A program made the position numbers and the translations under genes. From an uncultured Alphaproteobacteria bacterium (GTDB lineage Bacteria; Pseudomonadota; Alphaproteobacteria; Rs-D84): a DNA stretch of 32,000 nt. The DNA lies in NCBI GenBank assembly GCA_963931495.1, contig OZ007020.1:750001-782000 (forward strand), written 5' to 3'. The notes under the pieces were generated by a model. The model did not search any database. It worked only from the letters and a program-made list of their open reading frames with translations, and was not told where the DNA came from. Of this stretch, positions 4,898 to 20,306 are shown in pieces (position 1 is the first letter of the stretch; every line of letters begins with the position of its first letter).

Positions 4898-5539
4898 TTA
4901 ATTTTGATAATACGCGGCCCCGGTACACGACCAAGATCCGGTACTGTCACTGCCGGTCAGACCGGTAACATAGCATGATGTGATTGATTCTGCCCCAGAA
5001 CCAGATGTTGTTCCGCCACCACTGCATTGGGTACAGCCGGTGTAATTGCCAATCATTTGCATCGCTGGTGGCGTTCCCCACCAACCTTTGGCACAACGAT
5101 ATGAAGATTTTTTGGAACATGTGCATGTTGACGTATTGCATGTCGCATCAGTAACATATTCGTATCCTGTGGCGGGCGATGTCACCGAATCAAGACAATT
5201 ATCACATGTGCCATCACAATCATCACCGCCACCGATATCACCACCCTGTTTTACACAGTCGTAATATGTCCCCGTATTGGCACACGGTGATACCAACTGT
5301 ACTGTTTTCCGTGTTCGGGTGTATCCGCTGTTGCATGTGGTACATGATTCAATTTTGTTATTCGTGCTGCCGCCCCAACAACTGACTGTTTTTGTTTTGC
5401 AATTCAAAACACGTACCATCGGCGTTGTTGTATCCCCTGTTTGACAGGCCTGGTCTGAACATGCCATACCCAACGCCCACGCATTTGATGTCAGCGCACC
5501 CCCGCAAATAATTGTTAAAAATATTGTGAACTTTTTCAT
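4898..5539 (-). CDS. secreted cysteine-rich protein, paralog A (function unknown)
   Basis: The signal peptide is MKKFTIFLTIICGGALTSNAWA. The mature part contains about 19 Cys. It aligns by motif with the upstream gene: TC.SGY.R, DDCDGTCD.C, TGY.Y...ATCNT..C.C, WGTP, GCT.C, SIT.CY and GSDS.GSW. Confidence 0.75.
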   Translation of the reverse strand: MKKFTIFLTIICGGALTSNAWALGMACSDQACQTGDTTTPMVRVLNCKTKTVSCWGGSTNNKIESCTTCNSGYTRTRKTVQLVSPCANTGTYYDCVKQGGDIGGGDDCDGTCDNCLDSVTSPATGYEYVTDATCNTSTCTCSKKSSYRCAKGWWGTPPAMQMIGNYTGCTQCSGGGTTSGSGAESITSCYVTGLTGSDSTGSWSCTGAAYYQN

Positions 5540-5560
5540 ATTCTGATTTTTTCCCCCCCA

Positions 5561-6325
5561 TCAATAGAAACAATTTCCGCCTTCAATCACCCACGACCCG
5601 GAACTGTCACTGCCAACGGTTCCATTGGGTAAATAGCATGCAGTAATTGACGTACTGCCCGCCATACAGCGCGCGGTATCAGGGGCGCACCGTGTACACC
5701 CAGATGTCAGTGATACATTCGGGGTTCCCCAATAATTTGGGGCACACTGTGTGTGCCTGTCTTTGGTGCATTCACATAAATCCGTGTTACATGTTGCAAC
5801 GGTGCGGTATTGATATCCTGTATTGTATGTTTGCCACGGTGTACTGGTACAATCGTCGCACGTGCCATCACAGTCATCTGGCGCGCCTGGATATTTGCAA
5901 TCGGTATATGAAACCGTGTTTGTACATTCGCCATTCAGTTTTATTGTTCGTGTTACGCGTTCGTAACCCGATTTGCACGTATTACATGTCGCAACCGCCG
6001 CACTGGTTGTTGCCAGATTTTGGCCATAGCATGTCATGCTGGACGCCATGCAATTACGCAATATATTATCAGGCACAACTTCGTCAGAACAGCCCCGGGG
6101 TTGGCATACCTGGCCTGTTGTACCACCGCCACCAACACCACCGCTGCCACCGCCGGGATTTGTGGGGTCGGTGCCACTGCCACCTTCGTTGCCGCCAACG
6201 TCACCACCAGATGAACTGATTGCATATGCAGTATCAATATGCGCCACAGTGCATAAAAGTGCGGTAATGCATACCAATGAAATTAATGCACGCGCCGAAT
6301 CTAAACCTCCGTTTAGATTCGGCAA
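5561..6325 (-). CDS. secreted cysteine-rich protein, paralog B (function unknown); start codon uncertain
   Basis: A hydrophobic signal-like segment ends in TAYA. A Gly-rich linker follows, then about 20 Cys with the same motif order as paralog A. The track start TTG 6325 lies inside the conserved upstream element. An alternative in-frame TTG lies at 6277. Confidence 0.7.
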   Translation of the reverse strand: MPNLNGGLDSARALISLVCITALLCTVAHIDTAYAISSSGGDVGGNEGGSGTDPTNPGGGSGGVGGGGTTGQVCQPRGCSDEVVPDNILRNCMASSMTCYGQNLATTSAAVATCNTCKSGYERVTRTIKLNGECTNTVSYTDCKYPGAPDDCDGTCDDCTSTPWQTYNTGYQYRTVATCNTDLCECTKDRHTQCAPNYWGTPNVSLTSGCTRCAPDTARCMAGSTSITACYLPNGTVGSDSSGSWVIEGGNCFY

Positions 6326-6422
6326 AATACGAGAGATAAAAAATGCAGAAATCTGGGATTTTTACAAAAATAAAAACCGCCGCTGTAAACGGAGGTTTAG
6401 ATTCGGCATAAATATTACACCC
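6294..6422 (-). repeat. conserved ~129-bp element, copy 1, 5' of the Cys-rich operon (candidate regulatory switch or structured leader)
   Basis: 6294-6314 (gccgaatctaaacctccgttt) is the perfect reverse complement of 6387-6407. A local 13-bp palindrome spans 6294-6306 and 6311-6323. The direct repeat gtttagattcggc occurs at 6311 and 6395. By hand alignment the element shows about 16 differences in ~129 positions against 18865-18992. Confidence 0.8.
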
Positions 6423-6459
6423 AAAATAGTAATATATTTATTGCATTCGCGTCAATAAA

Positions 6460-7227
6460 TTAATGTATTTTTTGTGAATTTTGCATGATTTTTTGGTATG
6501 CCGCCGACCATTCGCCATGGGCACGCATTAAACGTTTTGCAATAAAATCAACTGGCTGGTGTGCACCAATATATATTTCCGTGCCGCCGGGCCCATTATC
6601 AACAATAAATCCGCGTGTTACAGACATGGAATCCAGATACGCAAACATCGGCAAATGTTCAACGTTTACACGTTCCATATCCAGTTTTTGATGATTATCC
6701 GATGATATCTGGACACATTCGCGCGTCATTGCCGGCGGCGTGTGAAATACAGGGACTGTTTTGCACTGAATTTTTGATTGAATTTTCTTGCGATACTGGT
6801 TGCTGCCACGCATAACTGCACGGTATCCGTGTTTTTCATAAAAACGACATGATTTTAACAATGATACTAAATCCAACAGCCGCGCGCCCATTGCACCAGC
6901 AGATTCAGCATATTTTAACAATTGCCCCCCGATGTTGTTTGACATGCATTCTGGTAATACATACAATCCGCGTATTGTTGCAACGCGATTAACACAATCG
7001 CCATTTACAAATCCCACAATATCAGAACCATTATATGCCCCAAACGCAAAATTAAATCCACGGCGACGCCACACCGCGGCGTATTCTGCACGGGCGTCAT
7101 CGCGTTCATTTTGGGTCATATTATGATTGTAAACATGCTGCATCGCAGATGCACGTATACGTAAAAAATCGTCCCAGATATTCGGGGCCGCTTGGTTAAA
7201 AATTGGTAAAATATTTATATCAGTCAT
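6460..7227 (-). CDS. GNAT family N-acetyltransferase with an uncharacterised C-terminal extension
   Basis: The N-terminal half shows a GNAT motif A-like block (IRGLYVLPECMSNNIGGQLLKYAE ... FYEKHGY). I did not recognise the C-terminal ~100 aa. Confidence 0.5.
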   Translation of the reverse strand: MTDINILPIFNQAAPNIWDDFLRIRASAMQHVYNHNMTQNERDDARAEYAAVWRRRGFNFAFGAYNGSDIVGFVNGDCVNRVATIRGLYVLPECMSNNIGGQLLKYAESAGAMGARLLDLVSLLKSCRFYEKHGYRAVMRGSNQYRKKIQSKIQCKTVPVFHTPPAMTRECVQISSDNHQKLDMERVNVEHLPMFAYLDSMSVTRGFIVDNGPGGTEIYIGAHQPVDFIAKRLMRAHGEWSAAYQKIMQNSQKIH

Positions 7228-17658: not shown

Positions 17659-18273
17659 ATGAAACGTTATTTATTAATCACAATATGTACAATCATTTTA
17701 CCAACACTGGCATATGCAGAGGATAGTTATAATGCGCGCGATACGTATGTTGGGGTGCGTGTACACAAAAACGACAATATTGCATTTATGATGGAACCAG
17801 ATAACGGCGATGGTGTGACATTGCGCGATGACGGATTTGGTGTCGGATTAACAATCGGAAACAGACTGACCCAGAACGTAAAAATTGAATTTGAAACCGC
17901 ATATACAAATGGCAAAGATTCTGATGTCGGAAACGATTTTGAATTTCATGTATGGTCAAATATGTTGAACATGTATGTTTATCAACAATTTGGTGGCGCA
18001 GTTGAACCATATATTGGGTTCGGTATCGGGGTATCTGGATTGTGGGGTAAATCACATGGGCTGTACGATTTATCCGATGCAACCGCAGATTTGTCGTGGT
18101 CATTAATGCTGGGGGTGAACTTTGCATTAAATGACTATGTTGACCTGAACCTGGGACTGAAATACCAGAACTATGGCGATATGGATATGACGAATGACGC
18201 CGGATATCATAACTATACCGAAATTGACGCCACAGAAATATATATTGGTGCCGCGTACAAGTTCGGTTTATGA
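17659..18273 (+). CDS. small outer-membrane beta-barrel protein (Omp25/31- or OmpW-like)
   Basis: The signal peptide ends in LAYA. The sequence has alternating beta-strand character and ends IGAAYKFGL. Confidence 0.6.
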   Translation: MKRYLLITICTIILPTLAYAEDSYNARDTYVGVRVHKNDNIAFMMEPDNGDGVTLRDDGFGVGLTIGNRLTQNVKIEFETAYTNGKDSDVGNDFEFHVWSNMLNMYVYQQFGGAVEPYIGFGIGVSGLWGKSHGLYDLSDATADLSWSLMLGVNFALNDYVDLNLGLKYQNYGDMDMTNDAGYHNYTEIDATEIYIGAAYKFGL

Positions 18274-18855
18274 ACTCATATCATAATTACACTGTTGTAC
18301 CCATTCACCACTGCCGGTGCTGTCTGAAAATTCGGTACCAACCGCGATATAACAGCTGGTAATAAAAGCATTTCTACCATGGATGCTGGTGGTTGTTTCA
18401 CCGTTTGGCCCCGCCGGACATTGTTGACATGATGGTCTGGAACCATAATATCCCGCGTCACAGTATGCGAGGACCACACTCCCCCTGCACGGTTCGCAAC
18501 AAAGCAATGAATATTGTGTACAATTACCGTTTGAATCAGTACACACTTGACACAATTGTCCGGGTGGCGGGGTTATTGCTGTTCCGCCACCATCATCGCC
18601 ATCGTCACCATCGTCGCCGCCATCACCCGAACCTTCGCCACCACCCTGGTCCACATCTTTACAATACGTTGAGCATAATTGTACACTGGGCGCACAACAA
18701 ACAGTGCCTGATGCAACCATACTGATACACGCGACTTGACCGGCTGGGCAATTCTGGCCAGATTCTGCACCGCCCAGTGCATAAGACGCGTTTGGTGTAA
18801 TCAAATTAACAAATACACAACCGACAAATAATAATTTATTAAAATATTTCCACAC
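18268..18855 (-). CDS. secreted cysteine-rich protein, paralog C (function unknown)
   Basis: The GTG start gives the signal peptide MWKYFNKLLFVGCVFVNLITPNASYA. The mature part has about 17 Cys and a G/D linker. The C-terminal module CDAGYYG...CQQCP...ITSCY...SDSTGSGEW matches the C-termini of paralogs A and B. Confidence 0.7.
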   Translation of the reverse strand: MWKYFNKLLFVGCVFVNLITPNASYALGGAESGQNCPAGQVACISMVASGTVCCAPSVQLCSTYCKDVDQGGGEGSGDGGDDGDDGDDGGGTAITPPPGQLCQVCTDSNGNCTQYSLLCCEPCRGSVVLAYCDAGYYGSRPSCQQCPAGPNGETTTSIHGRNAFITSCYIAVGTEFSDSTGSGEWVQQCNYDMSS

Positions 18856-18866
18856 AACAGTTGCAT

Positions 18867-18992
18867 CTGAATCTAAACCACGTTTAGATTAGGCAAAAAA
18901 CGGGATATAAAAAATGCAGAATTCTGGGATTTTTACAAAAATAAAAACCGCCATTATAAACGGTGGTTTAGATTAGGCATAATATCACACCC
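18867..18992 (-). repeat. conserved ~129-bp element, copy 2, 5' of Cys-rich paralog C
   Basis: The architecture matches 6294-6422. A local palindrome spans 18870-18878 and 18882-18890. The direct repeat gtttagattaggc occurs at 18882 and 18966, again 84 bp apart. The inner inverted repeat matches 16 of 17 positions. The element ends 11 nt before the GTG start. Confidence 0.8.
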
Positions 18993-19040
18993 TGCGTGGC
19001 AATATTTTATCAATTTTTTCAACCAGAATCAATAATAATA

Positions 19041-19062
19041 AAAACGCCCAATCGGGCGTTTT
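19041..19062. terminator. bidirectional Rho-independent terminator downstream of ackA
   Basis: Stem aaaacgccc (19041-19049) pairs with gggcgtttt (19054-19062) around a 4-nt loop. A/T runs flank both sides. Confidence 0.75.
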
Positions 19063-19064
19063 TA

Positions 19065-20306
19065 TTATTTTGCAAATGAATAATCCATTTCCAAATGATT
19101 TGGATTATATGTTCCATTCATAATTGCAATCGTGTCTTCAACAATAACCAATTCTTCGTTTGTTGCAATCATGAATATTTTCACACGACTGTCGGGTGCG
19201 GAAATTTCCATTTCATCAACACCCTTGCGCGCCAATGCCGCAGCATTTTTTTCAGAATCCAATTTAACCCCAAATTCTGTTAAACCACTGCAAAACTTTT
19301 CACGCAGGTAATCGTCGTTTTCACCAACACCCGCAGTAAACACCAACGCGTCCGTATGCCCCAGTTCCGCCATAAATGCACCAATATATTTTTTTACATT
19401 GTGCGATTCCATTTCTATGGCCAGGCGACACTTGTCATTCGTTTCACGATTTTCTTCTACGTCACGACGGTCGGCGAAACATTCAGTCAACCCCAGCAAT
19501 CCAGAATCTTTGTTCAAATGCATCTGCATCTGGTCCGGTGTTAAGTGCAGACGCTGCATCACATACAAAACAACGCCTGGGTCCAAATCACCCGGCCGGG
19601 TACCCATGGTCAGCCCCGCCAATGGCGTCATGCCCAACGATGTGTCCACGGAAACACCATTACGTATCGCCGTCGCAGATGCCCCAGAACCAATGTGCAA
19701 TGTCACCAAGTTACATTCCGATGCAGGCTTGCCCAACATTTTTGCGGCACGTTTTGAAACATATAAATGCGATGTTCCATGAAAACCGTATCTGCGCACA
19801 CCTAATTCTGTGTACCATGCGTTTGGCACCGCATAACGATATGCATAGTCTGGCATTGTTTGATGAAATGCGGTATCAAATACCGCAACCTGGGTTGCGT
19901 TTGGCAACAACTGTTTTGCCGTGACAATGCCCATCAATGCCGCCGGATTATGCAACGGTGCAATTTGCGACAGTTCATCAATTGTCTTGATAACGTCGTC
20001 ATTTATTTCCACAGATGATGCAAATTTATCGCCCCCCATAACAACACGATGCCCAACGCCACCAATTTCATTCATGTCAATTGATGCTTCGCGTAACATG
20101 AACAAGACGACGTTCAACGCTTCGTTATGATTTTTCATTTCTGTATCTTTGCGTTGTTTGGTGCCATCTGGATATTTTTGTGTTATAAAAGAATCCGCCA
20201 ATCCGATTTTTTCAACATTTCCGCCAACAACATATTTTTTTGAATCGGCGTCAAAAACCTGGTATTTCAGTGACGACGACCCACAATTTAATGCAAGTAT
20301 GTACAT
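19065..20306 (-). CDS. ackA: acetate kinase
   Basis: The N-terminus reads MYILALNCGSSSLKYQVFD. FHGTSH and later ASKHA-fold blocks follow. I prefer the ATG at 20306, preceded by AAGGGGA. Confidence 0.95.
   Translation of the reverse strand: MYILALNCGSSSLKYQVFDADSKKYVVGGNVEKIGLADSFITQKYPDGTKQRKDTEMKNHNEALNVVLFMLREASIDMNEIGGVGHRVVMGGDKFASSVEINDDVIKTIDELSQIAPLHNPAALMGIVTAKQLLPNATQVAVFDTAFHQTMPDYAYRYAVPNAWYTELGVRRYGFHGTSHLYVSKRAAKMLGKPASECNLVTLHIGSGASATAIRNGVSVDTSLGMTPLAGLTMGTRPGDLDPGVVLYVMQRLHLTPDQMQMHLNKDSGLLGLTECFADRRDVEENRETNDKCRLAIEMESHNVKKYIGAFMAELGHTDALVFTAGVGENDDYLREKFCSGLTEFGVKLDSEKNAAALARKGVDEMEISAPDSRVKIFMIATNEELVIVEDTIAIMNGTYNPNHLEMDYSFAK

Follow-up and report, generated by a model that had tools for sequence, protein, structure and literature searches.

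Two conserved elements upstream of cysteine-rich secreted protein genes in an uncultured alphaproteobacterium are probably compact phase-variation switches

The window analysed here is a stretch of 32,000 nucleotides from an uncultured alphaproteobacterium of the lineage Rs-D84 (assembly GCA_963931495.1, contig OZ007020.1, positions 750,001 to 782,000, forward strand). It harbors two copies of a conserved element, 6294-6422 (129 nt, copy 1) and 18865-18992 (128 nt, copy 2), each of which lies immediately upstream of a minus-strand gene encoding a cysteine-rich (Cys-rich) secreted protein, with the same orientation in both cases. Global alignment of the copies yielded 14 mismatches and 3 gap columns, corresponding to 87% identity, in good agreement with a preliminary description of the sequence, in which about 16 differences including 2 indels had been counted by hand and the common orientation relative to the gene had been recognized. 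The shared core described there was recovered as 15+1+30 nt, the longest identical run between the copies being 30 nt. In the neighboring 300 nt of coding sequence the identity is 53% and in the 100 nt on the other side 51%, both of which represent background. Conservation of the two copies is thus sharply local, and the downstream coding regions are as poorly alignable as had been reported.

Read in gene orientation, each copy is composed of a sigma70-like promoter, a box ATGCCKAATCTAAA, a short hairpin with a T5AT5 run, an AT-rich core, a second, identical box exactly 84 nt past the first one and the open reading frame (ORF). Between promoter and gene each copy carries two 34-bp sites of the pattern ATGCCKAATCYAAA-N6-TTTRGATTMGGCAT, arranged in inverted orientation and 84 bp apart. 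The half-site GTTTAGATTNGGC occurs five times in the window (expected 0.17), always within the two copies, and no further half-sites were detected in the 32 kb outside of them. In copy 1, the 22-bp stretches 6294-6315 and 6386-6407 form a perfect inverted repeat on either side of 70 bp. This repeat is absent from the preliminary description and proved to be the key feature of the locus; in copy 2 the inverted repeat is imperfect. The features of copy 1 and its genes are as follows, the orientation in the window being termed OFF and the opposite one ON (numbers with L denote related loci, numbers with P protein records):

6426-6455, minus strand: predicted sigma70-type promoter TTGACG-N18-TACTAT, a 9/12 consensus match located upstream of site 1 at a distance of about 17 nt and not part of the invertible segment
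6376-6409, minus strand: distal site S1 with left arm ATGCCGAATCTAAA (6409-6396), spacer CCTCCG (6395-6390) and a degenerate right arm (6389-6376)
6386-6407, no strand: distal arm of the inverted repeat, 22 bp, 100% complementary to 6294-6315, with 70 nt between the arms
6367-6392, minus strand: terminator-like hairpin CCGTTTACAGCGGCGG with T5AT5 run, in this (OFF) orientation only; putative function
6331-6411, plus strand: flippable cassette with GAGAGA resembling a Shine-Dalgarno (SD) sequence (6331-6336), ATG (6343-6345) and the codons MQKSGIFTKIKTAAVNGGLDSA, running into S1 when OFF
6316-6385, no strand: invertible interior, 70 bp, in opposite orientation in the other assemblies L133 and L134 and in window orientation in L135
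6292-6325, minus strand: proximal site S2 with left arm TTGCCGAATCTAAA (6325-6312), spacer CGGAGG (6311-6306) and right arm TTTAGATTCGGCGC (6305-6292)
5561-6305, minus strand: body of Cys-rich secreted protein gene 1, with h-region, AYA signal-peptide cleavage site and mature protein; no Pfam family
4898-5539, minus strand: second Cys-rich secreted protein gene, co-oriented, 21 nt downstream of gene 1

The spacer of S1 is the reverse complement of the S2 spacer, and the arm consensus is kept across species. Inverted recombinase core sites are built in this way, from binding arms around an asymmetric spacer that must match the spacer of the partner site. In the window orientation gene 1 possesses neither a ribosome-binding site (RBS) nor a start of its own; counted from a TTG, its ORF covers 5561-6325 (254 aa). 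When the interior of copy 1 was inverted in silico, a new N-terminus MQKSGIFTKIKTAAVNGGLDSARALISLVC... (MQKSGIFTKIKTAAVNGG...) arose in frame with the gene. The hypothetical flipped protein was used as query of a protein collection and the 90%-identity cluster to which it belonged was listed. In this cluster the 266-aa proteins P0028, P0030, P0031, and P0033 start with exactly the predicted MQKSGIFTKIKTAAVNGGLDSAR, while the 254/255-aa members start with MPNLNGGLDSAR, which is the OFF-state reading. From GGLDSAR onward, P0029 (OFF) and P0031 (ON) have the same sequence, and 111 nt of the two align in reverse at 100%. On the DNA level, the interior of copy 1 is precisely inverted with unchanged flanks in L133, where it lies internally in a 198-kb scaffold, and in L134; the window orientation was also found in L135 and in L001-L008. 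In natural populations, the 70-bp interior therefore exists in two orientations between the same flanks.

The corresponding features were determined for copy 2:

19004-19032, minus strand: predicted promoter TTGATT-N17-TAAAAT with TG extension, a consensus match
18947-18980, minus strand: distal site S1, ATGCCTAATCTAAA CCACCG ..., from site comparison across elements
18937-18964, minus strand: terminator-like hairpin ACCGTTTATAATGGCGGT with T-run, in OFF orientation only
18887-18956, no strand: invertible interior, 70 bp, on whose plus strand the ATG at 18914-18916 reads MQNSGIFTKIKTAIINGG; inverted in L136 (protein P0045)
18864-18896, minus strand: proximal site S2, with a 1-nt spacer deletion (CGTGG at 18878-18882, CGGTGG in L138 and L139)
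18268-18855, minus strand: Cys-rich secreted protein gene 3, starting here at GTG 18855; other strains have an open frame across S2

For this copy, too, the N-terminus predicted for the flipped state, MQNSGIFTKIKTAIINGGLDSDATVV..., was matched by a protein record, P0045, and inverted DNA was found in L136, whereas L138 and L139 share the window orientation. The 37-kb contig of L136 carries copy 2 in ON and copy 1 in OFF orientation (L003), which indicates that the two switches are independent. Taken together, assembled contigs and protein records contain two of the attributes by which an inverton is recognized, namely inverted repeats flanking the segment and both orientations at the same locus. 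It had been stated in the preliminary description that the TTG frame of copy 1 meets a TAG in copy 2. This is correct for the window and is due to the 1-nt deletion in the spacer (CGTGG for CGGTGG), which other strains do not have. The deletion would break both the identity of the spacers and the reading frame after inversion. Upstream of the copy 2 promoter, between it and an acetate kinase gene, a strong terminator-like hairpin with a 16-bp stem and T-runs on both sides was noticed (19034-19069), which probably insulates the copy 2 switch from upstream transcription. In sample ERZ24773291 the inverted interior of L136 (1950-2060) is chimeric: its SD-proximal half is identical to copy 1 (GATTCGGCAAAATACGAGAGAT), whereas the remaining part is that of copy 2. 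This interior arose either by gene conversion involving the two switches or as a chimera of the assembly over the shared 30-nt core.

Based on these data, each copy is very probably a phase-variation switch that operates by site-specific DNA inversion. A fixed upstream promoter would be followed by a 70-bp interior that flips between two inverted sites and thereby sets the gene body ON or OFF. In the OFF orientation the transcript would meet a hairpin with a U-run within about 40-60 nt behind the promoter, and the gene body would remain without RBS, proper start codon and the positively charged N-region of its signal peptide. In the ON orientation the T-run would be relocated, site 1 would be left as a perfect hairpin without U-run, and an A-rich leader would be followed by GAGAGA, six nucleotides, the ATG and about 14 codons which run in frame through the proximal site, completing a signal peptide such as MQKSGIFTKIKTAAVNGGLDSARALISLVCITALLCTVAHIDTAYA|ISSS. 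The ON orientation encodes a complete precursor with charged N-region; the OFF orientation does not. In both window copies RBS and start codon are lacking and a terminator-like hairpin with T-run is predicted behind the promoter, so that both appear to be OFF. SD sequence, ATG and N-region occur in the flipped orientation only and the hairpin in the present one only, which provides a strong sequence logic for a putative dependence of expression on orientation. The second gene of the copy 1 locus (4898-5539) is probably co-transcribed with gene 1 and hence co-switched, as judged from the spacing of the two.

The window copies are not invertible promoters of the fimS, Bacteroides or mpl type, their best internal promoter match being 7/12 in either direction. 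According to the consensus scans, the arrangement instead conforms to a terminator switch of the cwpV type, with a promoter outside and upstream of the segment and a terminator-like hairpin in one orientation. At the equivalent position most of the related switches possess a promoter scoring 9-11/12. In the ON state S2 of copy 1 would be translated as ..NGGLDSA.., and translation of this site explains the recurrence of an NGGL, KGGL or NVGL peptide across the family. The element is accordingly not merely non-coding, as had been proposed. Its antisense strand carries an SD-like sequence and an ATG followed by about 14-16 codons, which become the 5' end of the gene once inverted, and the TTG at 6325 that had been considered as a start is part of the recombination site and an artefact of the OFF-state reading.

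The conserved arms would be recognized by a site-specific recombinase acting in trans. Most likely this would be a tyrosine recombinase, which is favored by the arm-spacer-arm layout and the matching of the spacers. The independent switching of each gene would result in combinatorial surface variation in a gut alphaproteobacterium with reduced genome.

For the identification of related switches a two-box scan was performed with one genome per species, whose pattern was noisy and biased toward one orientation, with box 1 weakened; copy numbers per genome are consequently lower bounds. Among the matches listed, a sharp peak at 92-93 nt was obtained in metagenome-assembled genomes (MAGs) of gut and termite-gut Alphaproteobacteria, "Rickettsiales" and Candidatus Enterousia, with several matches per genome, and the true elements were picked by means of this peak. 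Two copies of a different-looking 200-nt element, located upstream of two other genes in a MAG of another species (L011/L012, GCA_017463185.1), contain the same two boxes 85 nt apart. In the at least about 40 elements listed, each box represents the left arm of a near-palindromic 34-bp site with 14-bp arms around an asymmetric 6-bp spacer, and the two sites are 83-86 bp apart. The spacer differs between elements, while that of site 1 is the reverse complement of that of site 2, as in the pairs CCTCCG/CGGAGG, CCACCC/GGGTGG, CGGTCC/GGACCG, CGTCCC/GGGACG, CGTTCC/GGAACG, CGCTGG/CCAGCG, and others. Complementarity is 6/6 in 18 of 42 table rows and 5/6 in nine more, with at least ten different spacers.

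All of the approximately 40 listed elements lie in one orientation between a promoter and a gene encoding a signal peptide, which corroborates the earlier view of a cis-acting element dedicated to the 5' ends of such genes and not scattered at random. A signal peptide is present in every downstream product of this list, and many of these products have a Cys content of 5-9% or Thr/Pro repeats. In 16 of the 17 evaluable elements of the window type, the flip places an SD-like sequence and an in-frame ATG or GTG ahead of an ORF that is 90 aa or longer; the start codon then lies at +46 to +50 and is read through site 2 into the long ORF. An element of this type was encountered, unselected, in ON state in L031. 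Besides RBS, start codon and signal-peptide N-region, two other payloads were found on the same sites. In type II the promoter itself is invertible, and the gene behind it has SD sequence and ATG of its own: a 10-11/12 sigma70 promoter in the interior is directed toward the gene in L029, L048, L028, and L141 and faces away from it in L011, L031, L055, L088, L111, L120, and L122. Type III moves the T-run only, like cwpV, and is OFF in L100, L105, L106, L119, and L026 and ON in L073, L114, and L142. The hairpin with T-run is confined to the existing orientation in the window copies (W1, W2) and six other elements, and to the flipped orientation in L073 and L114. A scan of metagenomes for perfect palindromic sites retrieved two loci, both consistent with the model, and a scan of viral contigs retrieved no copies.

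Some of the related loci deserve mention. In L031 (2108-2450) two switches are located back to back about 200 bp apart in front of divergent genes, the promoter-type one being OFF and the start-codon-type one ON. L028 (4488-4620) represents a promoter-type switch with two fully palindromic sites and a promoter toward the gene; its site spacing of 106 bp, compared with the usual 84-85 bp, indicates that the spacing is not absolutely fixed. Many MAG contigs, among them those of L026, L055, L058, L081, and L100, have an end within a switch, and a fold-back is seen in L137. The switches apparently fragment short-read assemblies, and the counts per genome are for this reason underestimates.

Several points weigh against the interpretation as recombinase-operated switches. 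Neither the Pfam analysis of the window ORFs and of 133 neighboring ORFs of related loci nor a crude regex scan of 40 loci for tyrosine and serine recombinase motifs revealed a recombinase candidate. An invertible segment of 70-84 bp is very short for recombinase synapsis. Promoters, terminators and SD sequences were assigned from consensus matches only, GAGAGA being weak as an SD sequence. One subgroup of elements has a spacer complementarity of only 4/6, and copy 2 of this window may be naturally locked OFF or defective, unless its deletion is an assembly error. The missing recombinase would be in line with inversion at any 22-bp inverted repeat through template switching or recombination over short homologies, which would make the two orientations a polymorphism instead of a programmed switch; perfect inverted repeats are able to promote inversion unaided. 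We nevertheless regard this explanation as unlikely. The arms (GCCKAATCYAAA) are kept across divergent MAGs in which interiors and spacers diverge, the spacing is held at 83-86 bp, a coherent SD sequence, ATG and signal peptide result from the flip in the 16 of 17 elements, three payload types use the same sites and half-sites are found nowhere else in the window. Such conservation of arms, spacing and payloads argues for a site that is recognized and selected.

A structured RNA in the 5'-untranslated region, serving as attenuator or long-range stem without any DNA rearrangement, comes close to what was originally suggested and is very improbable. It could account for the strong fold of the element (-52.9 kcal/mol, z = -7.8), the terminator-like hairpin and the co-variation of spacers between sites. 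However, folding is equally strong on either strand, as expected of any inverted repeat, and is therefore not discriminating, while co-variation of the spacers is expected from the identity of crossover regions between recombination sites. The comparison with Rfam that had been recommended matched no family: the window gave no hit at the gathering threshold and solely sub-threshold noise at E up to 10; tRNAs were not found in the window either. In eight contigs of the same species, aligned over 300 nt, seven positions are variable in the element and one in the flanks, at the last aligned position, and the strain-level changes in the stem are non-compensatory. This concentration of non-compensatory variation in the element argues against simple purifying selection on an RNA stem. 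The interior moreover occurs in both orientations at one locus and across loci, which would be intolerable for an RNA motif. An RNA hairpin or terminator probably contributes to the OFF state, but solely as a result of how the DNA is oriented. Of the two processes originally put forward for the similarity of the copies, purifying selection, if taken to act on an RNA or leader, is not supported, the element being the most variable part of the locus within the species, and sequence exchange receives a hint from the chimeric interior of L136.

The size of about 115-130 bp, the terminal inverted repeats and the presence of several copies per genome are reminiscent of a miniature inverted-repeat transposable element (MITE) or a repetitive extragenic palindromic (REP) sequence that lies upstream of genes by chance. 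To this possibility we attach very little weight. No target-site duplication was seen by eye at the ends of either copy, the flanks are fixed with the interior alone flipping, copies are missing from viral contigs and from the remainder of the 32-kb window, and the about 40 listed copies share position and orientation between promoter and signal-peptide gene, where they often supply the start codon. It is most improbable that the ON contigs are assembly artefacts of the inverted repeat, even though L137 shows a fold-back artefact at its contig end and L136 a chimeric interior. Four distinct ON protein alleles derived from different samples, L133 and L136 lie within contigs of 198 kb and 37 kb, respectively, and are correctly flanked on either side, and the ON state had been predicted beforehand and results in a functional reading frame. 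A 22-bp repeat is also shorter than the k-mer size usually used in final assembly. Two further ideas were discarded. A reading of the boxes as transcription-factor sites or a sigma-28-like -10 element was given up, since they form the left arms of palindromic sites with reverse-complementary spacers. Leader-peptide attenuation starting from the ATG in box 1 was abandoned because an SD sequence is absent and the reading frames are inconsistent.

Switches of this kind are known from other bacteria. In Clostridioides difficile the promoter of the surface protein gene cwpV lies outside and upstream of a 195-bp invertible segment with imperfect inverted repeats of about 21 bp, and the OFF orientation contains an intrinsic terminator about 60-70 nt past the transcription start (PMC2784873). 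This switch, which depends on RecV, resembles the arrangement predicted for the window copies in its outside promoter and its terminator in OFF orientation. Unlike the 70-bp interior of the window, with RBS, start and about 14 codons, the cwpV segment includes no promoter and no part of an ORF; its repeats are unrelated to the window sites, whose host is an alphaproteobacterium. The mpl (P35) genes of Mycoplasma penetrans (Horino et al. 2003) are described as many dispersed surface-protein genes of a reduced genome which switch independently by small invertible elements of their own, with recombinases acting at several loci (summarized in PMC2268961). The mpl elements invert a promoter, whereas the window copies invert RBS, start and N-terminal codons together with a terminator; there are promoter-carrying relatives of the window element as well (L011, L029, and L048). 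In the vsa system of Mycoplasma pulmonis, vpma of M. agalactiae and mba of Ureaplasma the recombination site lies in the 5' coding part, as here, and inversion joins promoter, RBS and 5' coding end to the gene body (PMC2268961, PMC3047005). These systems use one expression site, several silent genes and large inversions, in contrast to a private mini-cassette per gene that is set ON or OFF. The invertible promoters of Bacteroides and other gut invertons, like the window element, occur in gut bacteria and use one repeat consensus for numerous loci; surface structures are their targets and a trans-acting recombinase operates them, as is proposed here (PMC11602134, PMC10028968, PMC9881135), but their repeat consensus differs from that of the window element. 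Formally, the latter belongs to the "partial intergenic" invertons, a class whose typical members are long and shufflon-like and serve the exchange of protein domains (PMC10028968), while the window element is very short and would toggle translation initiation.

Reports on invertons of Rs-D84 or Enterousia were not found in the literature. Systems of this kind are known; what appears to be new is the site consensus, the 70-bp interior, the combination of RBS, start, N-region of the signal peptide and terminator in one payload and the use of one scaffold for three payload types. Candidatus Enterousia belongs to the order Rs-D84, with member genomes of about 0.75-1.0 Mb (PMC12306168). Tentatively, and with somewhat less than even confidence, we propose an ultra-compact inverton family with about 84 bp between crossover centers in reduced-genome gut Alphaproteobacteria, probably Rs-D84/Candidatus Enterousia and termite-gut relatives, in which one conserved site pair, three payloads and a putative trans-acting recombinase would provide combinatorial control of a large repertoire of Cys-rich surface proteins in genomes of about 1 Mb. 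What looked like a conserved non-coding element can hereby be reread as a phase-variation switch, of which ON and OFF alleles occur in nature in an uncultivated, reduced-genome gut lineage, and in which a single inversion of a 70-bp interior would toggle translation initiation, signal-peptide completeness and a terminator. By means of the site consensus all switches in genomes of the Rs-D84 type can be sought directly, as can the recombinase through its co-occurrence with them, and ON:OFF states can be read from metagenomes.

The state of the switch also affects gene annotation. In ON-state assemblies the 266-aa gene is called correctly. In OFF assemblies a 136-aa antisense ORF over the switch and a 56-aa Cys-rich fragment were called (window 6036-6458, plus strand; L001, 9082-9492). 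This difference between gene calls is a systematic annotation artefact of the switch state. In the OFF state public gene callers miss the gene, call a spurious antisense ORF or use a false TTG or ATG inside the recombination site, and the surface-protein repertoires of these organisms are consequently mis-annotated.

None of the three Cys-rich signal-peptide proteins could be assigned to a Pfam family. The Cys-rich proteins of the window (4898-6325 and 18268-18855) and P0002-P0019 share a conserved C-terminal motif, ..ITSCY..GSDSTGSW..C.Y, and homologues of this family (17 hits) were found in no more than a handful of gut alphaproteobacterial assemblies. Adjacent to the two copies a 24-nt inverted repeat with 92% complementarity was observed, whose arms are 11.6 kb apart. 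The arm at 6563-6586 lies within a GNAT acetyltransferase gene adjoining copy 1 and that at 18228-18251 at the 3' end of an outer membrane protein gene adjoining copy 2. Both encode TEIYIGA with the same codons, which by a rough estimate is unlikely to be due to chance.

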